Under the pieces are notes generated by a model. It was not told the origin of the DNA. It searched no databases and worked only from the letters and a program-made list of their open reading frames with translations. Positions 6,510 through 60,125 of a DNA stretch of 64,000 bases are shown here, piece by piece. The first letter of the stretch is position 1, and every line of letters starts with the position of its first letter. Source of the stretch: a virus (lineage: Duplodnaviria > Caudoviricetes). The stretch lies in IMG/VR virus record IMGVR_UViG_3300013936_000014; one strand, given 5' to 3'. Position numbers and translations under genes: made by a program.

Positions 6510-7742
6510 TCACCTCAAGTCAACCATCGTCACCGTGGGCTCGGCTGGAAGAGTGGCCGTAATGTTCGTCGACCCCACGGTCGCAAGGGTGACCGCCGAG
6601 CCCCACGCAAGGGTGGCATTCTTATTCGTCGTCGCCGGAGAGCTGATGACAATACCCCCGTTAGAATCGGTCGCGACTACCGTTCCGCCGGAGCCCTTGA
6701 TATTGAACTGCGATCTCAGCGCCCCATTCTCATAGAGTTTCAAATAAGCCTCTCCATTGTTGGTGGCCTTATTGGCTGCCGTGTCTTTTGCGCCGACATA
6801 AAGATAAGAACTCCAATGGGTATCTGTATTCGTATCCGTCCAGGGGACGCTCACCGTCATGGAGCCATCACTCGCGACGCTGACTCCATATGTCTTACCA
6901 TTTGTCGTGCCGCCTTTCACAAGTCCTTTTGCGGAATTGGTCGCCGTTCCCGGCAATTGATTGGTCGTCGCCACCGCTTGCCCATTCTTCAATACGGTGC
7001 CGTCATCCTTCACCCGTAGAAAATTCGATGCGTTGGCGGAAAGGGACCACTGCAAAGTGCCGGCCGGCGTTGTGGTCGACCCCACCCCATCATAGGCGTC
7101 CGTAACGCCGTTCATCGCCCCCAGGGTGAAGTCGAAGGCGAAATACGAATACGTCTTTATGTACAGAGTGGCGGTGCTGTTGGAGCTTGCGGAGCCAGAA
7201 GTGTACACGACAAGGTCGCACAGGCTCAATGACGCATTCCCGAGAATGGTGCCGGTGGCGGCAACGCCATCTCTGTTCGATATCATCATCGAAAGATACC
7301 CTTTGTTGCCGTTGTTCCATCCTCCTATTCTTCCATCCACGGTCAAAGAGCAGGAATTGCCGGCATTGTCTATCGGAAAGGAAGCCAGCTTGTAATAAGT
7401 GTAGGTGCCCGCGGTATTTCCGCTGTTCCCGCTCTTGTAATGCCTGCTGTTGTTCGCTTTTTTATTTAAAGCCGCTTGGGTGGCATTCGATATCGGCTTA
7501 TTCAAGTCGCTCGTGTTATCCACGTTGCCCAAGCCGACGTCGTTCTTCGTGTAAGAGAATTTATCCACCGTAAGAAACGGCAGATTCCCGACCGTCGTGG
7601 TCCCGTCGCCGACCTTCGCTTTATGAAGATCGCTGTAGTAAATGTATTCGCCTTTCAGCGGGACGAAAGCGGTCGCTTTGCCCCAATTGGCGCTTGTGTC
7701 GGCCTTTTGCTGAATGCGCGTTTTCAATTTCTTTTCTGCCAT
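6510..7742 (-). CDS. Tail fibre protein with Mtd_N/hyaluronidase-type N-terminal domain
   Basis: KTRIQQKADTSANW...PLKGE...KVGDG N-terminus; DVGLGNVDNTSD fibre repeat. Confidence 0.8.
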   Translation of the reverse strand: MAEKKLKTRIQQKADTSANWGKATAFVPLKGEYIYYSDLHKAKVGDGTTTVGNLPFLTVDKFSYTKNDVGLGNVDNTSDLNKPISNATQAALNKKANNSRHYKSGNSGNTAGTYTYYKLASFPIDNAGNSCSLTVDGRIGGWNNGNKGYLSMMISNRDGVAATGTILGNASLSLCDLVVYTSGSASSNSTATLYIKTYSYFAFDFTLGAMNGVTDAYDGVGSTTTPAGTLQWSLSANASNFLRVKDDGTVLKNGQAVATTNQLPGTATNSAKGLVKGGTTNGKTYGVSVASDGSMTVSVPWTDTNTDTHWSSYLYVGAKDTAANKATNNGEAYLKLYENGALRSQFNIKGSGGTVVATDSNGGIVISSPATTNKNATLAWGSAVTLATVGSTNITATLPAEPTVTMVDLR

Positions 7743-7949
7743 GATTGTCTCCTCCATTTATCGTTTCCAAAACTTGCAGAGATTGCCCTTCCCCATCATT
7801 CCAGAGGAAGGAGATATTCGCAATCCATCGTATTCTTGAATATGAACGACCCAAAAAGACATTGGATCGCAAATATCGCGGAACGGCCCGAAGGCGCGGG
7901 GTCTCCGCGCCTTGCGTTCCTTTTCATCCGCCCGAATAAAATCGGGCTT

Positions 7950-11076: not shown

Positions 11077-12144
11077 TCAAGCAACCGTGAAATGCCATTT
11101 GTTGGCTTTGTCGCAGGCTGCTGCATTGTCCTTATAATAGACATTATAGGATTTGGCCGTATAGCCGTTGGCGCCTTCAACATCCACAGTGATGTGCTTG
11201 AATGCGCTGAAAGCTTCGGCATTCAAACCGTTCACGTCTTTGATCGACGTGATCGTCCTTGGCGCCGGAACGGCGATGATGACTCTCATATCGCCGACGG
11301 ATTCAGCCGCATCTCCGGTATTGCCGGCGGAAATCGATCCGCCTTTTTTGCCGGACAATCCGCGAATGACGGCGCTCGTTGGGGTGCCTTCCTTCGATTT
11401 GACACCGCCCCAGAAGCTGTTCCGGTAACCAGTGATGGCAGATGAGGTGGAGCTCTTCGTGCCCGCTTTGATTGCCAGATCAGGCTTCTCAGTGCCTAAA
11501 TTGTTCTTAGGGCTTACGCCTGCGGTGTGGGTTGCCACAACGCTCACTTTATAATTGGTGTCATCAGCGACGGTGAATTGATAATTGCCGTCTTCCACGG
11601 CGAAATTGCCGCTGTCGGCGGTAGCGGTGTGCTTATCGGTGTCAGAAACCGCAAAAGTGGCGGTAACCCCCGTAGCAGGGCCATATTGATAACTGCCGCT
11701 GCCAAAACCGACCTGATAGCTGGGGGTGATGACCGTGCCGACCTCTTTTGCCCCAGCCTCATTCAATCTGATACTGACCCAAGGTTGGTCGACTTTAGGA
11801 TCTTTCGCCGAAGCGAACAGCCCGGATAAGAATTCCTTCAATGTCTTGTCTTTGGCGGCTATCGTTCCGCTTCCGGAAGCCGGCACGGTGAAAGTGCCAA
11901 TATTGACGGTCGCGGTGAAATCGCTTGTCATTTTGACGTTTTCGTCGGTGAGCTCTATCTCGTCTTTGACCGCGTAAGGAAGCTCTTCCCAAGTCTTAAC
12001 GCCATCACCGATCTTGAATTTGTTCGTATCGGTCTCAACGCCAATCTCACCCGCCAAGAGAATGACGCTCTTATTGGCCAGCCAGTTGGCCGCGGTGTCA
12101 TGACGAAGCTGAATTTTCATTTTCAAAATACTGTTTTCAGCCAT
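11077..12144 (-). CDS. Structural protein with Mtd_N-type N-terminal domain
   Basis: KIQLRHDTAANW...GEIGVETDTNKFKIGDGVKTWEELPY. Confidence 0.8.
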   Translation of the reverse strand: MAENSILKMKIQLRHDTAANWLANKSVILLAGEIGVETDTNKFKIGDGVKTWEELPYAVKDEIELTDENVKMTSDFTATVNIGTFTVPASGSGTIAAKDKTLKEFLSGLFASAKDPKVDQPWVSIRLNEAGAKEVGTVITPSYQVGFGSGSYQYGPATGVTATFAVSDTDKHTATADSGNFAVEDGNYQFTVADDTNYKVSVVATHTAGVSPKNNLGTEKPDLAIKAGTKSSTSSAITGYRNSFWGGVKSKEGTPTSAVIRGLSGKKGGSISAGNTGDAAESVGDMRVIIAVPAPRTITSIKDVNGLNAEAFSAFKHITVDVEGANGYTAKSYNVYYKDNAAACDKANKWHFTVA

Positions 12145-12191
12145 AACTTCTAATTTCCTCCTCCTGAAAATGTGCCTTTTGGACAACACGG

Positions 12192-12797
12192 TCACAAACC
12201 GTTGCTGTCTCCCCCGAAAAGAATTACGGAACTCTCGTCGGATTCCCCGTTGAGAACATTCACTATGTCTTGCTTCGCGGTGGGCGAATCGGTGAGCTTC
12301 GCCGCTTTGACATATGCCAGCCCGTTTTCTTCGACCTTGACATAATTCCTTTCACCGTCTTCGGAGGTCTCGACCTTTGAGGATCTTATGCCTCCTATTG
12401 CATCTTCCGTGGCGATTTTCGCATCGAGGCTGGTGGCCCCAGCGGCATGCCATTCATTCTCGCTCCAGAAGTATAGCAAATAATTTTTCCCGTCTTCCGA
12501 AAGCACCGCATAAAGGGCGTTTTCGCTCGCCTCGTCTTCTTTTGGCAAAGAGCTCACGACCTCAAGCCTGAGGGACGGGATGTCCCCGGCGCCGAATATC
12601 GATTGCCCGCCTATCGTCTTGACGTCCAACGGCGTCTGTCCTTCCAACGGCTCTCCTTTCCGATAAAGATAAAGCTTTCCGTCTACGGCGACGATGTCCG
12701 TGGGGGCCTGCTCCGTGGCGATTATGCCTGCGCTCGAAAGCCTGATTCTCTTTTTTATTACCAAATTGATTTCCGAGTTTTCCTTGTCTAATGACAT
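12192..12797 (-). CDS. Putative fibre/structural protein
   Basis: KTIGGQSIFGAGDI and VVSSLP...ENALY...W fibre-type motifs; position in the fibre cluster. Confidence 0.6.
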   Translation of the reverse strand: MSLDKENSEINLVIKKRIRLSSAGIIATEQAPTDIVAVDGKLYLYRKGEPLEGQTPLDVKTIGGQSIFGAGDIPSLRLEVVSSLPKEDEASENALYAVLSEDGKNYLLYFWSENEWHAAGATSLDAKIATEDAIGGIRSSKVETSEDGERNYVKVEENGLAYVKAAKLTDSPTAKQDIVNVLNGESDESSVILFGGDSNGL

Positions 12798-13823: not shown

Positions 13824-16355
13824 CACATGGACCTTCTGTCTTTCACTTCCGCCATTTTGGCGTCGTTCATTTTCGTGGTGCCCTCCACTTTGGAATAGCC
13901 GAGGTATCCGCACACCCTGTTTATGGTGGTGAGGTTATGGGACCCGCAGAAACCGCAGACCTCGTCGGCATCGTCGGTCTCGTTCCCACAGTCCTCACAA
14001 TAGGATTTCTCTATGTTCACACCGAAATAATATCCCAATTTCATCGCGCGCCTTATGCATTGTTTGATATATGCCTCATTCATCCCAGAGACGAAACGGC
14101 AATATTGGATGTGCCCGCCGCTCGCGATATGGAAATATCGGAATTCCGCGTCCTGCTTCTCATAAGGCGTAATATCCTCGGTCACATGCATATGAAAGGA
14201 ATTCGTGAAATACGCCCTATCAGACACTTTGTGGATCACGCCATATTTCTTCACGAATTGCTCTCGCTGAGTCCCACAAAGAGACTCTGCCGGAGTCCCA
14301 TAAAGGGCCGCTATATAACACAGTTTTCCTTCTTGATATTCTATTTTTTTCTCATCGACATAGTTGCTTATGTATTTAAGGACTTTGTAAGCAAAAGCAT
14401 CTTCGTCGTTTCTCACGTCATACAAAGATTTCCCGTTATAAAGTTCTTGCAGCTCGTTCAAAGCGGTGAATCCATAAGAGAAGGTTATCCTCTTGACAAG
14501 AGGAGCGATGTCGTCTGTCGGCTTGAGGCGTCCAAAACCGCCTTCGCAATATCCGACCGGATTGCAGCTCGCTTTCAGTTTGCATAAGAAATCGAACGTT
14601 TTTATATGGAGATGGTTGATCATATCAAGATAATAATCAAGCACTTCATAAAATCCTTTTTTCTCTTTCAATGATTTCTCATAAATCATCGGAAGATTCA
14701 AAGAAATTGCGCCGCCGTTAAAACGCCCGGTAAATATCGGCCTGTCTTCATCGCTGGCCGGCTTCAATCCGCCCTTCTCATAATAGGCGGACAAGTAGGC
14801 TCTACACGTTTTATCGAATGTCACCATTCGCACTGACTATATTATCAGCTTTCGCTGTTTCCTATTTGGACTCGGTGCTTATCTCCGAGTCTACTCCGTT
14901 ACATTCATCGCGGATAGTCGATACAGGTTCCTAATCTTTTTATAACCAATAAGATTAAGCTTCTCACGGTCTCATCTTATTTCTAAGACCTAACCGTTAG
15001 CAGCGACTAGTGTCGCCACACCCCCGAGCGGGGTTAAGGAAATTTAAGATGGGCTGTAGTTTGCGCTTACCCATCGGGCTGATAATCGAATCAACCCATT
15101 CAGGATTCTCCTGAACATTCTCGTTCTTATCCAAATACCATCTGGACACTCCGAATTTATGATATTTCTTGAATATGTTTGCAATCTGCGGGTCGTAATG
15201 AGGAGCGTGGGCGCCTTTGATCAAAGTCTCGTCCGGCTCATCGAGCGACAGCCAGTCCGGATACATTGCCACACAGGAAGTCTTCACGCCTTCGTTGAAC
15301 AACCATTCTAATGGCTTGCCTTCCCCATGGAGTTCTTTCGTATAAAGGAACACCATCTTCGGGAAGATCGCCGGACGTTTGTGGCCAGGATGTCCTTGTC
15401 CTTCGCGTCTGACTTTCAGTGCCGTGGACCAAACCAGAGCGCCGAATCTCGTTTCGTCACATCCGCCGGTGACGGTGATGAACGGGTAATCGCCGCGGCT
15501 TGAAGCCACAGTGTTGAACGTATGCTCGAATCCCTGGAATACCTGCTCGATATCCCTTTCGACTTTCTTGATCGCGTACTGATCCGCCGCATGCTCATCG
15601 TAATTGCCGTTCGTCAAAGCGCAGAGCGTTTTGTACTCGAGCATGTATTTGTCATAGGTTTTTTCGGCATAGGGGGCCAAGATCGAATCTATCTCCGGCA
15701 ATGTGAACCCCCCGTATTGCTGAGCCGCGCAATTCAGCGTGATGTCGCTGATCAGATTGCCTGCGGTTCGCACATCTTTAGGCTCATTGTAACCTATATG
15801 CTCCCACTCAAATCCGCCTTGCAATACTTTACCCATATCGAATAAACAGCAGTTTCCTGTGTCCAGCCTAGCGGACAGATCATGTATATAAATATACCCG
15901 TCGCTCATGGCGGACAATTCCTCTTTGCTGAGAAAATTCTTTTTGTAGATCTCTTTATTCAACGCGGAATACACCATGCTTCTCTTCGTGGAGACGAGAG
16001 CCGCCGATGTGTTCGCGTTGCTGCGATCTATCTTGTAATTCATTTCATCCGCCGTTTTGAGGACGTTATCCATCATTTTGATGAAATCTTCCTTGTAGTT
16101 GCGGTAATCCCTATATGCCTTCGCGACATCTTTATTCACTTTATCCAAAGCGCACTCCACGAAATTGTGCATCTTGGCCACAGGGATATTATCTTGTCCG
16201 TCTTTCTCGATTTCTTCTCCGATGAACCTCTTTATGTCTTCGAGGTCTTTGCCAGACAAAGAGATATTCACCCTATCCGCCGACTTACTCACCGCGGATC
16301 TGATTTTCTCGAAATCGAAAGGGACACAATGATTGTCTTTTTTAATAACATTCAT
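13823..16355 (-). CDS. nrdD: Anaerobic (class III) ribonucleotide reductase; exons 15069-16355 and 13823-14806, 756 aa spliced
   Basis: N-terminal ATP cone, IYIHDL, TPAESL, YFTNSFH and the RVCGYL glycyl-radical motif. Removing the intron restores SPMG|CRAYL. Confidence 0.95.
14807..15068 (-). ncRNA. ORF-less group I intron in nrdD (262 nt)
   Basis: 5' exon ends in U (GGU) and pairs with downstream GCCCAUC (P1). Intron ends in omega-G (AAAACG). P7 elements UCGACUA and AUAUAGUC are present, and splicing is in frame. Confidence 0.92.
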
Positions 16356-52031: not shown

Positions 52032-55000
52032 GTGCCAGTTGTGCAGAATCTATATCAGATCTTCAAAATTCCGGCGTCCGTCTTGGTCGCCAAAAACTGC
52101 ATTTGGGACAATTATTCAAGAGCCCAAGGCTACAAAGACGGGAACATCGTCTCCATCGGCGACAACATCGTGTTCCAGCAGCTCCGCTATATCCACGGCG
52201 ACATGCGCGAGCATCATGAGATCTTCAATTACATCCAGCGTCTTCGCAATTCCATGAGGCGCTACAAAAAAGAAGGGAAGAAAGAAGAGGCGAAGATACT
52301 GGGATACAGGATAAACCAGGTCATGTTCGTGGAAGACATCGTGAACGTCTTCGTGGACGGCAAGAAATCCGATTTCCACAAATTCCGCACCAAGGGGTTC
52401 GAATTCAATGGGCACAGATACGTCTATCTCTGCTCGGGCGCCGGCCAGATCCGCCGCAACACCGCCACCTTCGTGCGCGAGGAATACCACGACAGGCTCG
52501 TCAAAACCATCAACTGCGGGCTCGACGAGAAGACCTCCGAGTTCGTCCTGGCGAAATACAGCGCCTACTTCGCGCTCGCTTTCTCCTCGATACTCTGGGT
52601 CCGCACCCCCCGCTGCTGCGTCATCAGGGATTTCAAAAGAAACCTTCCCAAACAACCCGTCGACTTCATCTGCAAGGATGCCGCCGGCAAATCGATCATC
52701 GAGAAGCGCGAGATGGACGTCGAGCTCAACTGCTTCGACGGGCAGGGGCTCATAGACCCCGAGTTCGCGCAGCTCTGGTCCGAGGACATGGACCTCAACT
52801 ACACGCCATGCTCGTTTGTCGCCCGCTCCTGCTTCGTCAAGGGGAACCTCGCGACGTTCGACTTCAAAGCCTATGCCCGCGAGCACGGGATCAAAACCGT
52901 CAGGGACCGCTGGGGCAAGGAATACGACGTCGAGGACATCGACGTCATCCTCTCGGAGTCCCAGTTCAAGACCGCCAAGTATTACTCCTCTTGGGAGGAA
53001 TACCTCGGCTACGCGAACGCGGGCAGCATCCACTGGGGCGTCGCGAGATACAACAGGGAGACGGACGACGAATGGGTGCTGGCAAACTACCAGTACATCC
53101 AGTCGCTCACCCTCTCGAAAGACGACATCAAGGGGCTCATCGCCCCCACGATCGACTGGATAAGGAAGATCTGCTCCGGGGATGAGCTCTACACCCTGCT
53201 TTACTGCTTCGGCCCGAAATCCGGCTCAAGCGACTATCGGCAGATGCTTGGGACGGCGCAGACGACCATGATGAAGGCCATCGTGAAAAACGTCGACTTC
53301 CTCAAGGACTCATACGTTCAAGGCAAAATATACAAGAACATCGCCGAGACGATAAACAAGGCGAAGATCGGCAAGATATGGGTGCATGGCAATTACCAAT
53401 TCATGGTGTCCGATCCGCTCGCCCAATGCCAATGGGCGCTCGGGCTCGACCCGGTGGGCGGGCTCAAGGCGAACGAGATATACTCAAAGTTCTGGAGCGA
53501 CCGATTGCGGGAAGACCCCGCACGGGATACGGGTTGCCTCGTTGACGCGTGCAGATCGCCGTTGATCGATCAGCATGAGCACAACCCGATGAGCGTCATC
53601 ATGAACAACGAAGAAGCTGACAAATGGTACAGGTTCCTGCCGAGCGGAATAATCTACAACTGCTACGACACGAGCTGCGCCAGGCACAGCGATTCGGACT
53701 TAACATCTAGGTCTTCCATATGGCGACATATGGTCAAGTCTTGGTGAACACGCAAAGTGGTGTGGGAGGGGAATCCCTCCTGCTAACATCAAAAACCGTA
53801 AAATAGGTATTGAAATGGAACGCAACAAAACAATCGGCAATAAAAAGAAACAAAAGAGTCGATGGCTATTTGATAAGAAAAATACCTAAAGGCAATGATG
53901 TGCCAAGCCTCCGCAAGGAGGAAGGTGCAACGACTAGGGAAACCGCCGGCAAAGCCGGAGAAGGGAGTACCGTAGGGGCGTCTGAGATGACGTCTCGAAG
54001 TGCCAAGCAACTCGGAAACGAGTTGAAGAAATAGTCTAAGCCCCTAATAAATATCGGGAAACCGAGGGTATCAACTGTCGATGGTGACATAGTGATGACT
54101 ACGGACAACCCGTACTTCATCAAAGGCTCCCACAAGGACCACAACATAATACTTTACGAAAAAGGCCTCGCGACCCCCGCGAAGATGACCACGTCCAACA
54201 TAACGGCGGCTGTTCTCAGGGGGTTCGGGACAGCTGTCGGGAGTTTCTCAAATTGCGCCACGATCATGTATGCGATGGCTGCGATTTTCGACAAGCCGGG
54301 CCAAGAGGACCAGGAAAACACAATTTACAACCGAATAAAGCTTCTAAGAGAGATAGTCGGCCAAGAGATCGACAAAATAAAAGGCTGCAAACCTCCTCAT
54401 CTCCCTTCTGACTGGAAGAAATACGAGCGCACGCTCCCAGACGATGAAGAGGAAGAAAGGCAGCGCAAATACAAACACAATGCTTTGGTGATATCGAAGA
54501 AACCCTATTTCTTCCGTTATCTCTACCCAGAGCTAAATCGTCGCTACAAGCAATTCGAGGCGTCCTACAACCAAGTCAGCCGCGACATGTTCGGGATCAA
54601 ATTCAAGAAGCTTCTCGCCAAGCGGGACAAAACGCCAGAGGAGGTCGCGCTGGTCCGCAAATACCAGAAATACAACCCCCTCATCACCTCAAACTGCACG
54701 ATGAACGTCCTCTGCAGGATGGTGGAGTCGGTCGACTTCGACATCCGCTTCGCGAAGGACGACTCGGACACGAGGAGGCAAGCCGTCTCCATGCTTCCAA
54801 CATACGAGGGGTATTACGGCGCCTCCTTCTCGCAGGAGAAGTTCAATTACGTCAAGTCGCTCTACCGTCGCTATTGCTCCCGCCGCCAAATAAAACAATT
54901 GGAATCCATCATGGATAACGTGCCGACCAATCCTTATTCCGACGATTTCGCGGAGATCAGGCACAACATGCTTGACGCATTCCTTGACGAATTGCGCAAA

Positions 55001-55405
55001 GATCTTGAGTCAAGCAATATCAACGATGAGGAATTCCTCTTCTATTGCTCCCGCCTTGCCCCAACCTATAACAATTTCAGCTGGGGATTCGCATGGGACG
55101 TCCTGGGGGATTCGATCTTGGAGGCAATCCCGCAAGGCAGAACCCTGTACCCGGTCCGCGACCCCGACGGCGTCGAGTATCTTGGGGGCCGCTACGTCCT
55201 GGAGGACATCTCCGACAAAGGGGAGCTCGCCATACAGTCCCTCCTCGATTCCGTCTTCGGGGACCCGGAGGGCACGCTCACCGAGGAGGAGATAGCCCAG
55301 ATGGCGCGAGAGGAAAATCTTGACATCAAGGGGAAAAAATCGGATAATGACGCAGAAAGGGGAACGGAGAAGAAGGAAGGGAAAGACGATGACGAAGATG
55401 AGTGA
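52032..55405 (+). CDS. YonO-like single-subunit (RdRP-like, double-psi-barrel) RNA polymerase; exons 52032-53700 and 54078-55405, 998 aa spliced
   Basis: SGAGQIR, KYSAYFAL, FDGQG, FVKG, NYQYIQ, CRSP and EIDK motifs. Splicing restores SDSDFDGD. Confidence 0.9.
53701..54077 (+). ncRNA. ORF-less group I intron in the RNA polymerase gene (377 nt)
   Basis: P1 GACU/GGUC with a U-G pair at the splice site, P7 elements AACGACUA and AAAUAGUC, omega-G at 54077, frame restored. Confidence 0.92.
55320..55348 (+). promoter_or_regulatory. Putative sigmaA promoter inside the RNAP 3' end
   Basis: TTGACA-17-GATAAT. Confidence 0.5.
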
Positions 55406-58099: not shown

Positions 58100-58353
58100 C
58101 ATGCCCCCGGAAAACGCCCCGGGGGCTTTTCGGGCGGGCCGAACCGAAATCAGGGGCCGCGGGCCGCCGGAGGCCGCGCGCGAGGCGGGGGGCGGATGGG
58201 GCAGGGGCGACGGCAACGGCTGCGGCGACGACTCGGGGGAGCAGCGGCGGCTGCGGCTGCGGCGGCAACTCGGGGGGCGGGGGAGACCAGTGAAAGGGAA
58301 ATAAGAAAGAAATTATTTCTTTTAAAATGTAAATTAGGGTTTTCCTGGTTTAC

Positions 58354-58420
58354 CGTCGACTAGGCGACGTTAAACAGCCGTCAGGCCTAGTGCGTCCTTC
58401 CTTTTAAGGGAAGGGGTCGG
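58354..58420 (+). ncRNA. Pistol self-cleaving ribozyme
   Basis: P1 CGUCG/CGACG; loop ACUAGG pairs with CCUAGU (pseudoknot); UUAAA linker; P2 CCG/CGG; conserved GCG; P3 UCCUUCCUU/AGGGAAGGG; G|U site at 58416/58417. Confidence 0.88.
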
Positions 58421-58449
58421 ATCGTATATCCGAGAAAGGAGATACTCTC

Positions 58450-58665
58450 ATGAAGTATCGTTTCATTTCGTTCCGCACTTACGGAACAGGCGTCGTTCAA
58501 TACGACACAAAGGCATTCATGTCTGAAGACATGGGTGCCTTGATCGAGGCCGTCTGCCAGGAGGCCCGAATCCTCTTGGCGAACGGCCACGACCGCATCA
58601 CGGTCCACGAGACCTGCGATGCGGAGGACGCGAAAAGATGGAATATTTCCATCTGCCGCGTCTAA
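58450..58665 (+). CDS. 71-aa hypothetical protein between two ribozymes
   Basis: SD GAAAGGAG; the stop codon overlaps twister-sister P1. Confidence 0.7.
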   Translation: MKYRFISFRTYGTGVVQYDTKAFMSEDMGALIEAVCQEARILLANGHDRITVHETCDAEDAKRWNISICRV

Positions 58666-58742
58666 GCCGCAAGGCCCCTCTCTCAAAAGAGAGAGGATCG
58701 GTGCAAGCCCGATGCCCCGAAAGGGGTGGCGCTCATGGCCTA
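58663..58742 (+). ncRNA. Twister-sister self-cleaving ribozyme (four-way junction type)
   Basis: GCC-GCAAG-GCC, P3 CCUCUCUC/GAGAGAGG, P4 AUCGG-UGCAAGC-CCGAU, P5 GCCCC-GAAA-GGGGU, then GGC-GCUC|AU-GGC. Predicted cut at 58734/58735. Confidence 0.9.
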
Positions 58743-59611
58743 TGACCATCGAGGTTGCTCTCGTTAAAAAGCTATGGCGCTTTCAGGCGCCAGCGTCGTG
58801 CGAATCTTGACGCACGATGGCTGGGCAAGACGCTTGAAGGCAAATGCCAGCGGTGGCAAACTCACCATCGCCCAGACGGGGGTCATCCCCGAACGGTGCA
58901 AAGCAAATAACCTCGCTTTGCGTAGTAAAAAAGAGGTAGACGCCCCTGCTTCCGCGGATCATCCGCAGGCGGTTGGGAAACGCACAAAGGAAAGCCAGGA
59001 CTCAGAGCCTGGCGGCCCGATAAGGGAAAAGATGGAGCGACTGCAATCCAGGCAGGAAATGGCTTGGACTAACGCGCAACAGCGGCGCGGCGGGAAAACG
59101 ATACCACTGATTTGATGTGGCTGGGTGAGACGCCTCTCTTCTATGTCCTTCGACCGACGATCGAGGGAATGCGGATGGAGGGATGGCGGAAGTACCTCTG
59201 CCTCCTCATGCACGTTTCATGAGGGGGTTGGCACAGAGGGAAAACAGTCGCACCTCAAGGTGGGAGCTCGGTTGCGAAGCAACCAGGTGCACGGCTCGAA
59301 TGGGGGAGATTCCCCCGGGCCCGGGAACAAAAATGACATGATTCTGCGGTGTCTTGGGTAGGTTTGCGTCGAAAACCTATCTCCGCGACCCTCAATCGTG
59401 TCTCTAGTCAACTGGAGCATCCTCCCTCACGATGGAGGGTAACGTCTGCTTCAACGTCGTCGTGAAGAGGCAGTGAGGCGGCATCACGCCAAGACCAGGA
59501 AAATGATGGCAGATATCGGACGCGAGGGCGCTAAGGCCACGACAACGTTCGCGTTCCGGACAAAACATAGTGGCACCGCCAGGGGCTGTCTTCGGACAGC
59601 TCCTTTTTCTT
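58735..59611 (+). ncRNA. Candidate large structured ncRNA (877 nt) of unassigned class
   Basis: No SD-led ORF. Near-continuous hairpins and pseudoknots, bounded by two ribozyme cut sites and a terminator. Confidence 0.7.
59581..59611 (+). terminator. Intrinsic terminator whose U tract doubles as twister P1
   Basis: AGGGGCTGTC-TTCG-GACAGCTCCT-TTTTCTT. Confidence 0.8.
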
Positions 59612-59661
59612 AATGCGGCAAGCTGGTCCCAAGCCCAGCGGAAGACGCAGAGGGAGAAAGG
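59604..59661 (+). ncRNA. Twister self-cleaving ribozyme (type P1)
   Basis: P1 UUUUUCU/AGAAAGG; U|AA at 59611/59612; P2 UGCG/CGCA; P4 GCUGG-UCCCAAGC-CCAGC; T1 CCC/GGG; T2 GC/GC; conserved GAGGG. Confidence 0.92.
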
Positions 59662-59669
59662 AGACTGAT

Positions 59670-60125
59670 ATGTCTCAAAACAGAAAAGCGGAAGCTCGCC
59701 TCATGTGCGACTATCCGATCTTCGGGACCGTCTCAGACGTGTCCCGAATGAGCACAGGCGTCGTCTACGTCCGCCCGTGCTACTTCAAAGCAGGCGTGGA
59801 CAAGGAGGTCGCGATCTTCCTTCGCGACGCGAAGAAGGAGCGCTGGGCGACCAAAGAGAATCTGAAGGTCGGCACCAAGCTGACCTTCATGATCAGCATC
59901 GACCCATTCAAGGGGCCGATGGCGACGAGCCTCAGAACGGTGAATGCCGCGCCGAAGGACGCGTATTCCGAGCCTTACCGCCCGGACTGCATCCCGGATG
60001 CGAAAGGCTTCCGCCGCATCATCGAGGCGGCGAGAAGACGGGACATGAGGGCTTGCCGCGAAAAGCTGGCGGCCTCATCCGACCCCGTCGACAGGCTCTT
60101 GGCGGCCATCCTGCCACGAGACTGA
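59670..60125 (+). CDS. Hypothetical protein (possible OB-fold)
   Basis: SD GAAAGGAG, overlapping twister P1', before MSQNRK. Confidence 0.65.
   Translation: MSQNRKAEARLMCDYPIFGTVSDVSRMSTGVVYVRPCYFKAGVDKEVAIFLRDAKKERWATKENLKVGTKLTFMISIDPFKGPMATSLRTVNAAPKDAYSEPYRPDCIPDAKGFRRIIEAARRRDMRACREKLAASSDPVDRLLAAILPRD

Follow-up and report, generated by a model that had tools for sequence, protein, structure and literature searches.

To our knowledge, few bacterial or phage RNA classes longer than 500 nt have a conserved complex fold: the rRNAs, group I and group II introns, RNase P, tmRNA, OLE, GOLLD, ROOL, and HEARO. Each of these large conserved RNAs has proved, or is expected, to carry out unusual biochemistry. 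GOLLD and ROOL are large ornate RNAs of phages and prophages (Weinberg et al. 2009, 2017, PMC5737381), and both have been studied as multimers by cryo-EM (bioRxiv 10.1101/2024.12.08.627333). Theta (minimal HDV-like) ribozymes adjoin phage tRNAs (Kienbeck et al. 2024, PMC10879173), and clusters of twister, twister-sister, pistol, and hammerhead ribozymes occur in bacterial and phage genomes (Weinberg et al. 2015, as cited in PMC5737381). We found in the literature no published account of ribozyme-flanked large phage RNAs, or of the RNA described here.

We studied a 64,000-nt stretch of DNA (hereafter, the window) from an uncultured phage of gut-type Firmicutes. We consider it likely, with a probability of about 0.72, that positions 58735-59611 encode a stand-alone plus-strand non-coding RNA of a non-Rfam family, which would be released by ribozymes and would act in trans through its fold. 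In the core of about 700 nt, four domains are predicted, with about 30 helices and one or more long-range pseudoknots (Table 1). Like GOLLD and ROOL, it is a phage-borne non-coding RNA in the range of 600-900 nt with an accessory distribution, many multistem junctions, pseudoknots, and highly conserved junction nucleotides; thus, the features that mark RNAs of this kind (more than 500 nt, junctions, pseudoknots, and conserved unpaired nucleotides) were all found. In contrast to GOLLD and ROOL, it matches neither Rfam model in sequence or structure, it is known from one narrow phage clade only, and its predicted ends are defined by ribozymes, a feature undescribed for the other two. Furthermore, GOLLD and ROOL are frequently near tRNA genes, whereas ARAGORN detected no tRNA or tmRNA in the 64-kb window. 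As with the Theta ribozymes, a small self-cleaving ribozyme in a gut phage, rather than a protein nuclease, would process the end of a non-coding RNA, but the ribozyme classes differ, the cargo is an RNA with a core of about 700 nt instead of a tRNA, and both ends may be ribozyme-made. The locus, with three ribozyme classes on one strand within 1.3 kb among small phage genes, also shows the typical habitat of the ribozyme clusters as cited above; here, however, one delimited segment is a large conserved structured RNA instead of an mRNA.

Table 1. Positions of the predicted RNA, the flanking ribozymes, and the neighboring genes in the window
Feature	Position	Strand	Remarks
Pistol ribozyme	58354..58421	+	RF02679, 67.1 bits (gathering score 34.5), full model 1-68
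Conserved 71-aa gene	58450..58665	+	62-93% identical in 9 homologous loci; 25 invariant residues
Twister-sister ribozyme	58662..58745	+	RF02681, 56.7 bits (gathering score 34), model 1-81/81
Predicted 5' leader of excised RNA	58735..58772	+	Terminal hairpin AUGG...CCAU plus one small H-type pseudoknot module
H-type pseudoknot module	stem 58750-58753/58760-58763; loop-tail pairing 58757-58759/58770-58772	+	In 5' leader
Core domain 1	58773..58987	+	Helices 4, 5, 7-10, and 12 each with 2-7 compensatory pairs; linker AGAGGUAGACG
Domain 1, bipartite long hairpin	58775-58848	+	
Domain 1, 7-bp hairpin	58850-58871	+	Conserved 8-nt loop
Domain 1, variable arm	58872-58896	+	
Domain 1, hairpin	58897-58922	+	Invariant loop AAAUAACCUC
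Domain 1, hairpin	58944-58977	+	Loop in predicted long-range pseudoknot
Core domain 2	58988..59103	+	Best conserved part; 75/146 columns invariant (alignment A4)
Domain 2, hairpins	58994-59013, 59016-59026, 59047-59068	+	
Core domain 3	59104..59263	+	Closed by 59104-59108/59259-59263; helices 20, 22, and 23 with 2-8 compensatory pairs each
Domain 3, covarying long hairpin	59131-59188	+	Inner stem 59146-59168
Domain 3, arm of variable length	59192-59232	+	
Core domain 4	59264..59473	+	Helices 27, 29-31, and 34 covary; 25, 26, 32, and 33 nearly invariant
Domain 4, invariant hairpin	59266-59290	+	GGUUGC/GCAACC
Domain 4, nested hairpin	59293-59321	+	
Domain 4, three-way arm	59336-59401	+	Covarying
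Domain 4, hairpins	59402-59417, 59419-59440	+	
Domain 4, closing hairpin	59446-59473	+	
Variable 3' spacer	59474..59580	+	From BLAST block structure and ORF lists of L036 and L041
Terminator-like GC-rich hairpin and U-tract	59581..59611	+	Terminator scan: 10-bp stem, UUCG loop
Compact twister (predicted), type P1, without optional P3/P5 part	59607..59658	+	RF03160, 43.3 bits (below gathering score of 67.2), E 8e-8
Conserved 151-aa gene, downstream of twister	59670..60125	+	60 homologs, 62-99% identity

Homologs of the RNA were located by means of a neighboring gene and a conserved 23-mer in 14 other metagenomic phage contigs from about eight lineages. Nucleotide identity is 65-88% between lineages and 97-100% within near-duplicate pairs; the family is narrow, and many rows of the alignments are near-duplicates. 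The RNA is confined to one clade of phages of about 130 kb with a gene for a YonO-like RNA polymerase. When the region was compared by BLASTN with 50,697 deposited phages, nothing matched, and the 71-aa and 151-aa proteins, used as single baits, gave no relatives in IMG/VR. Ten more distant IMG/VR relatives were obtained through the RNA-polymerase gene (47-60% identity); ribozymes are present in these phages, and the RNA is absent from them as judged by BLAST, nhmmer, and covariance models R1 and R2 (five whole records were searched). Two conserved motifs had no match in IMG/VR or in one genome per GTDB species; thus, the RNA was not found as a prophage in reference bacterial genomes. Two of the eight pattern matches in metagenomes (L035 and L039) were judged to be due to chance. 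The RNA is accessory, having been deleted in some sister phages, which live without it. The RNA-less allele retains half a twister-sister and so is an imprecise deletion rather than a precise intron-free site.

Neither the 71-aa nor the 151-aa protein matched Pfam or PHROG. The AlphaFold model of the former was of low confidence (pLDDT 63) and the structure model of the latter reached a pLDDT of 52; thus, both were too poor for fold searches. The stop codon of the 71-aa gene falls inside P1 of the twister-sister.

The consensus fold derived from alignment A2 contains 224 pairs in 34 helices. Paired cells amount to 93.8%, against 40-43% (about 41%) in controls with register-shifted (slid) partners, and compensatory double changes affect 74 pairs, whereas the slid controls give 15-21. 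In four of five measures, none of 500 shuffles reached the observed values; the count of further pair types was not above the shuffles (84/500). At least one compensatory pair was found in 21/34 helices. Covariation, proposed in the original prediction as a check, is therefore strong among the homologs, and six of the seven stems listed there were recovered in the comparative consensus, whereas GCACCU/AGGUGC is specific to the window and is not retained in the homologs. The stems CGUCGUGCG/CGCACGAUG, GCAAAGC/GCUUUGC, GCCAGG/CCUGGC, CCUUCGA/UCGAGGG, and GGGUAGGUUU/AAACCUAUCU covary; GGUUGC/GCAACC was recovered and is invariant among homologs, and the CCUCCUCAUG hairpin is an arm of variable length. 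The paired columns contain 429 G-U cells and 62 A-C cells, which fixes the plus strand, in agreement with the strand first proposed.

The ACCUC/GAGGU pseudoknot is pairable in 98.6% of cells, and both sides are invariant, hence beyond the reach of covariation. Another pseudoknot, between 58959-58965 (UCAUCCG) and 59122-59128 (UGGGUGA), is 100% paired at its seven pairs, and L015 carries two compensatory double changes there. In the 5' leader, the AUGG...CCAU hairpin is conserved and re-uses the 3' strand of twister-sister P1. The small pseudoknot module that follows has one to three tandem copies among the homologs, and its stem and its pseudoknot each have a compensatory pair in five to six sequences. 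Several long-range consensus helices (e.g., 58754-58765/59089-59102) show no compensatory change, and such helices compete with this 5' module.

Unpaired junction strands are conserved equally to paired columns (112/257 invariant columns versus 182/424). Junctions conserved in this way are a typical mark of RNAs that make tertiary contacts or contact ligands. In domain 2, the invariant junction strands are GGCGGCCCGAUAAGGGAAAAGA, GCAGGAAAUGG, and AGCGGCGC..CGGGAAAACGAUA; covariance model R2 scores 169 bits at this domain and had no credible match elsewhere in the searched data, and model R1 scores 152.8 bits at domain 4. The position of the 3' spacer is missing in the sister phages L022/L024 or holds other small genes (80, 101, or 320 aa). 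Separately, a 16-nt repeat, UGGCUGGGYRAGACGC, occurs at 58818 and 59118 and is non-random within the window; it was considered as a domain duplication and rejected, as the homologs keep each copy only in part.

The most informative feature of the locus is its bracketing by ribozymes, which the original prediction did not include, although the limits that it gave coincide to the base with the two predicted cleavage sites, C58734/A58735 and U59611/A59612. Rfam 15 was searched with the whole window at the gathering threshold, with 58200-59800 at E ≤ 10 with relaxed filters, and with 18 homologous or related loci at E ≤ 0.01-0.05; the only matches were to pistol, twister-sister, and twister. The pistol ribozyme lies upstream of the 71-aa gene and is also present in L015, L023, L037, L038, L041, and L042. 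The twister-sister has a complete consensus fold with the conserved GCAAGG...GUGCAAGCCCG...GGCGCUCAU core and is predicted to cleave. Cleavage of this class takes place at the C-A step in the conserved CGCUC^AU strand (site and chemistry from PMC5660989), so that the predicted cut would form the 5' end of the large RNA, with a 5'-OH. A twister-sister stands directly 5' of the core in all 13 contigs with upstream sequence and scores 55-64 bits in all homologs.

At the other end, the compact twister falls under the gathering threshold because the optional 21-nt P3 segment is missing. Its core nucleotides are present and activity is predicted; it scores 39-45 bits in nine homologous loci, and its stems show two compensatory changes between lineages (G-C to A-U, one in P2 and one in P4). 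No twister was found in L016-L019 and L031. The terminator-like hairpin with its U-tract would form the 3' end of the RNA; the U-tract serves as the 5' strand of twister P1, and the 3' strand of P1 overlaps the ribosome-binding site of the next gene. An equivalent hairpin of differing sequence precedes the twister in all twister-bearing lineages (L015, L022, L024, L023, L036, and L041). The excised size is predicted to be 747-1081 nt in the relatives with two assignable cleavage sites and no gene between them. We also considered whether the whole region was an expanded ribozyme and rejected this, as the twister-sister and the twister are each complete and compact alone.

Judging from these elements, the ribozymes appear to excise the RNA from its transcript. 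A phage transcript would carry the large RNA together with the 71-aa gene, and the twister-sister would cut immediately 5' of the RNA. The freed AUGG strand would then refold as the terminal hairpin, after which come one to three small pseudoknots. The terminator-like hairpin would set the 3' end; in read-through transcripts, this role would fall to the twister, which would cleave where the U-tract ends. This cut would leave a 2',3'-cyclic phosphate and release the ribosome-binding site of the gene that follows. The result would be a discrete RNA with both ends structured and protected, which would most likely act in trans as a scaffold or assembly, RNA-only or with protein, as proposed for GOLLD and ROOL.

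Several other explanations must be weighed against a stand-alone RNA. That the region encodes a protein (ORF 58774-59115 or another), or is a GC-rich spacer with chance stems, has a probability close to nil. The longest ORF does span 113 aa from an ATG, without a Shine-Dalgarno sequence, and the minus strand, too, folds better than shuffles (-319 kcal/mol, z = -3.5; plus strand, -356 kcal/mol, z = -4.3). However, this ORF is broken in every homolog by loss of the start codon, frameshifts, and two to six stops, its length varies by 1-2 nt even between copies that are 98-99% identical, and Pfam and PHROG gave no match. Codon-level conservation of the ORF, which the original prediction had named as evidence against an RNA, is thus absent, and the lack of an SD-led ORF that it had noted is borne out: the 877 nt between the predicted cleavage sites contain no conserved reading frame. 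Chance structure is excluded by the covariation and the slid-partner controls, and as far as sequence data go this explanation is already refuted. It is also very improbable that the covariance models overlooked a divergent member of a known large class, be it GOLLD, ROOL, OLE, RNase P, or a group I or group II intron in permuted or ordinary form. Remote members can escape Rfam models when the RNAs are large and evolve fast, and the size and phage context resemble those of GOLLD and ROOL (PMC5737381). Nevertheless, GOLLD, ROOL, OLE, HEARO, and raiA gave no match in 58200-59800 (1.6 kb) at E ≤ 10 with relaxed filters, in the window at the gathering threshold, or in the homologous loci at E ≤ 0.01-0.05, 66%-divergent copies included, and RNase P, group I, and group II gave none at E ≤ 10 in 58200-59800; the novelty first suggested by eye thus holds against the GOLLD, ROOL, OLE, raiA, and group II models. 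The absence of any tRNA from the window also speaks against this explanation. An intron, in particular, would be expected to have a domain-V-like hairpin, an intron-encoded protein, and a split host gene. None of these was seen: there is no RT/maturase ORF, the flanks are complete genes and ribozymes, and the RNA-less allele is a deletion that keeps half a twister-sister. The association of circularly permuted group II introns with twister ribozymes, taken as established at the outset, is not in Roth et al. 2021, where twister is named only as an example of a permuted small ribozyme.

It is more difficult to set aside the idea that the fold is a giant regulatory or stabilizing untranslated region, which would control twister-sister cleavage, and thereby what happens to the 71-aa mRNA, or how the 3' gene is expressed, but we regard this as improbable. 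The core is always fused to the twister-sister and the 71-aa gene, or in L027 a 121-aa gene; the 5' module could alternatively pair with the invariant CGGGAAAACGAU (12 pairs, 94.6% paired, without covariation), which suggests a possible switch. Moreover, in L023, L036, and L041, a protein gene follows the core with no ribozyme in between and precedes the twister, so that the excised molecule there would be an RNA/mRNA chimera. On the other hand, no coding sequence separates the core from the hairpin and twister in the window, L015, L022, L024, or L037, and the minimal forms of L022/L024 (747 nt at L022:409-1155) run directly from core to hairpin to twister without an ORF, which suggests that the RNA is not just an untranslated region. 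About 700 nt and about 30 helices also far exceed known bacterial cis-regulators, and twister-sister cleavage would separate the RNA physically from the upstream mRNA. Somewhat less unlikely, although still doubtful, is a refinement in which the RNA is equally real: its 5'-OH and 2',3'-cyclic phosphate are substrates of the host RNA ligase RtcB, which would join them into an exonuclease-proof circle. In the engineered Tornado system, twister-flanked RNAs are ligated by RtcB (PMC11263348). The geometry here is the same, as the ribozyme on the 5' side cuts itself close to its 3' end and the one on the 3' side close to its 5' end, to give the same termini; because the cuts are at the inner edges, almost no ribozyme sequence would be left on the product. 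The present arrangement differs in being natural and in using two ribozyme classes, twister-sister and twister, and it lacks the terminal stem that unites the ends, on which Tornado depends: each end has its own local hairpin, and in five homologs the 35 nt at one end of the excised RNA show no more complementarity to the 35 nt at the other than shuffled controls do. In addition, a scan of 20 larger ORFs of the window revealed no RtcB, and an intrinsic-terminator-like end would leave a 3'-OH, which RtcB does not join.

Within the preferred explanation of a stand-alone RNA, it is possible, as a tentative suggestion, that this RNA founds a new class of large ornate RNAs and has a sophisticated activity specific to it, as either a GOLLD/ROOL-like RNA-only or ribonucleoprotein assembly or a new large ribozyme; it would be made by natural excision with twister-sister and twister and perhaps circularized by RtcB. 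The locus is a well-supported new candidate large RNA with defined (predicted) ends; thus, it can be cloned directly for in vitro transcription, probing, and cryo-EM, and the presence/absence polymorphism among sister phages (L016-type with the RNA, L020-type without it) provides natural controls. Our finding also offers a concrete role for three ribozyme classes whose function in phages has been open since 2014-2015. The ribozymes appear to divide a polycistronic transcript of the phage into a mini-mRNA, the large non-coding RNA, and the mRNA that follows. If this is true, making a functional non-coding RNA would be the first defined job for the twister-sister/pistol/twister clusters of phages.

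The stretch at 58735-59611, originally described as highly structured and lacking an SD-led ORF, is confirmed as such, and its bounds coincide with the cleavage sites predicted for two ribozymes. Rfam 15 gave three matches around it in all, even at E<=10 (pistol, twister-sister, and twister; see table); the twister scores under the gathering threshold because the optional P3 part is missing. The twister-sister ribozyme is cut at the C-A step in the conserved CGCUC^AU strand (PMC5660989). From this motif, the cut in the window is predicted to lie between 58734 and 58735. The twister cut, at the U^A step after the P1 5' strand in the twister consensus, is predicted from the model alignment to fall between 59611 and 59612. 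The proposed coordinates thus match, to the base, the 877-nt piece expected from cleavage by both ribozymes.

Coordinates of the features in the window and in related contigs
Feature	Position	Strand	Remarks
Structural and metabolic gene block	1-51 kb	minus	Mtd-like tropism determinants, collagen-like fibre, NrdD, weak terminase match
Mtd N-terminal domain (major tropism determinant) proteins	6513-7757; 11080-12195	minus
ATP-cone/NrdD ORF	15000-16355	minus	452 aa; spans only positions 2-250/562 of the anaerobic ribonucleotide reductase profile
Second gene block	from ~52 kb	plus	headed by the polymerase; array contains the ribozymes
YonO-like polymerase, first ORF	52032-53744	plus	PF05183; phrog_8308 positions 75-550
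YonO-like polymerase, second ORF	54092-55402	plus	phrog_8308 positions 574-720
Pistol	58354-58421		67 bits
71-aa gene	between pistol and twister-sister		conserved
Twister-sister	58662-58745		56.7 bits, full model
H-type pseudoknot module	58746-58772		stem 58750-58753/58760-58763; loop-tail pairing 58757-58759/58770-58772; both covary
H-type module, homologues	L023:1406-1460; L027:1271-1350; L041:1644-1700
Direct repeat, 16 nt	58818-58833; 59118-59133	plus	UGGCUGGGYRAGACGC
Long-range pseudoknot	58959-58965/59122-59128		first strand in loop of hairpin 58944-58977
Compact type-P1 twister	59607-59658		43 bits, E 8e-8
151-aa gene	3' of twister		conserved
Hot-spot genes	L036:2499-3461; L041:2776-3081; L023:2652-2894; L020:515-673		320, 101, 80, and 52 aa
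Twister-sister relic	L020:343-420; L026:422-500		P1 5' strand, GCAAGGCC, first hairpin
Structured leader	L016:3905-4000; L020:697-792		GCCCUCUUCUUAG...CUAAGAAGGG...
HEARO RNA (IscB-type omega RNA)	L001:11262-11476	plus	111 bits

As folding energy alone is weak evidence (plus strand, -356 kcal/mol, z = -4.3; minus strand, -319 kcal/mol, z = -3.5), relatives were gathered. Nothing similar was found among deposited phages, and the RNA was not present in the IMG/VR relatives recovered via the polymerase. Fourteen contigs with the same RNA, representing about eight lineages at 65-88% nucleotide identity, came from two sources: the contigs encoding homologues of the 151-aa protein (60 homologues in a large protein collection) and metagenome contigs scanned for an invariant 23-mer. 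The alignment is collinear over about 700-750 nt from just past the twister-sister (58746 to ~59475 in the window).

The sequence comparison demonstrates a conserved, highly structured, plus-strand non-coding RNA. The RNAalifold consensus contains 224 pairs in 34 helices, with 93.8% of cells paired against 40-43% when the partners were slid by 1-3 columns, and 74 pairs with double (compensatory) changes against 15-21. None of 500 column shuffles matched the observed values on four of five measures; the fifth, the count of further pair types, was not above the shuffles (84/500 reached it). At least one compensatory pair was present in 21 helices, and an additional scan for covarying column runs found the 7-bp long-range pseudoknot, which is 100% paired; in the homologue that diverges most, two neighbouring pairs have changed in a compensatory way. 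The ACCUC/GAGGU pseudoknot proposed by eye is compatible with the alignment, both sides being invariant. In the paired columns G-U exceeds A-C (429 and 62 cells), and therefore the transcript is the plus strand. Invariant nucleotides are equally frequent in unpaired and paired columns, and the unpaired ones cluster in junction strands (e.g., GGCCCGAUAAGGGAAAAGA, GCAGGAAAUGG, CGGGAAAACGAUA, and GGCCCGGGAACAAAA). The direct repeat (0.09 expected by chance) recurs at a distance of exactly 300 nt; its second copy includes a strand of the long-range pseudoknot, and the homologues conserve only parts of each copy. The 113-aa ORF at 58774-59115 lacks a ribosome-binding site and is not conserved: its ATG is missing in most homologues, frameshifts occur even at 98-99% identity, and 2-6 stops are present elsewhere. 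It has no Pfam or PHROG match, and no other ORF is common to the homologues.

On the same comparative basis, a canonical twister-sister always adjoins the RNA on its 5' side (13/13 contigs reaching that far, including L027, which has a different upstream gene), and most lineages also have a hairpin and twister at its 3' edge. The excised RNA would start with AUGG, which is the twister-sister P1 3' strand and is predicted to pair anew with a conserved CCAU lying 7-8 nt downstream, forming a terminal hairpin. Between the twister-sister and the four core domains lie 1-3 tandem copies, depending on the homologue, of a small H-type pseudoknot module. It has a 4-bp stem, a 6-nt loop, and a UUAAAAA tail that pairs with the loop through its end; its shape recalls preQ1-I aptamers, without an Rfam match. 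A variable segment 3' of the core (107 nt in the window) is absent in the minimal forms L022/L024 and replaced by small genes in L023, L041/L012 (101 aa in both), and L036; this spot is a hot-spot for unrelated small genes among sister phages, and in L031 it holds a 153-aa ORF and, after it, a second twister-sister. A GC-rich hairpin and U-tract directly precede the twister in every twister-bearing lineage; the hairpin sequence varies by lineage, the U-tract doubles as twister P1, and the twister has two compensatory stem changes between lineages. The predicted excised lengths are 747-748 nt (L022/L024), 877 nt (window), 900 nt (L037), and 1081 nt (L015). In the L016/L020 lineage, the twister before the 147-aa gene is replaced by another conserved structured leader with no Rfam match, which might be another processing element.

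The RNA is narrowly distributed. Complete IMG/VR genomes of 131-150 kb from more distant relatives lack it entirely, and two of its invariant motifs had no match in one genome per GTDB species. Three sister phages without the RNA (L020, L021, and L026) share the 71-aa protein, and their 147-aa protein is identical to its L016 counterpart; only a 450-nt spacer separates the two genes. They retain the first half of the twister-sister, after which the sequence diverges; ribozyme and RNA have thus been lost by an imprecise deletion, and the locus is no empty intron or transposon site. The RNA is therefore accessory.

The window comes from a large phage genome. Its two-barrel polymerase, apparently split into two ORFs, has its nearest deposited relatives (28-35% identity) in SPbeta-like Bacillus phages, Enterocloster phages, Clostridium phage c-st, and an uncultured human-faecal phage; thus, a Firmicute (Bacillota) host is a reasonable inference. 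The Mtd-domain proteins hint at a target of a diversity-generating retroelement, and the NrdD gene may be split or interrupted. In the IMG/VR relative L001, the HEARO RNA directly follows the polymerase gene and precedes a 412-aa ORF, an arrangement that is probably an IscB/IS200-605-type insertion; twister-P5 and pistol lie 4-5 kb downstream.

We propose that co-transcriptional self-cleavage would free the RNA from both the 71-aa mRNA and the downstream mRNA, that the hairpins at both ends, with the 5' pseudoknots, would protect its 5'-OH and 3' ends against exonucleases, and that the freed RNA would work through its fold. Chemically, RtcB could circularise the RNA, and the two ribozymes are arranged as in the engineered Tornado system (PMC11263348); however, end-to-end complementarity was not above shuffled controls, and a scan of the 20 larger ORFs found no RtcB. 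As the minimal forms have nothing coding between the two ribozymes, the RNA is unlikely to be purely a cis-regulator.

For the freed RNA we favour, at low confidence, a trans-acting role as a scaffold or assembly, as proposed for GOLLD and ROOL. It shares its kind, but not its family, with these RNAs (PMC5737381), from which it differs in lacking a tRNA neighbourhood and in having ribozyme-defined termini. Theta ribozymes adjoining tRNAs are a precedent for ribozyme maturation of phage non-coding RNAs (PMC10879173); the association of permuted group II introns with twister, originally given as established, finds no support in Roth et al. 2021. The RNA matches no Rfam family, and literature searches found no published description of it. 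These results support the interpretation as a novel large phage RNA: it is a new family within a known kind, the large ornate phage RNAs, with predicted excision by two ribozymes as its unusual feature.
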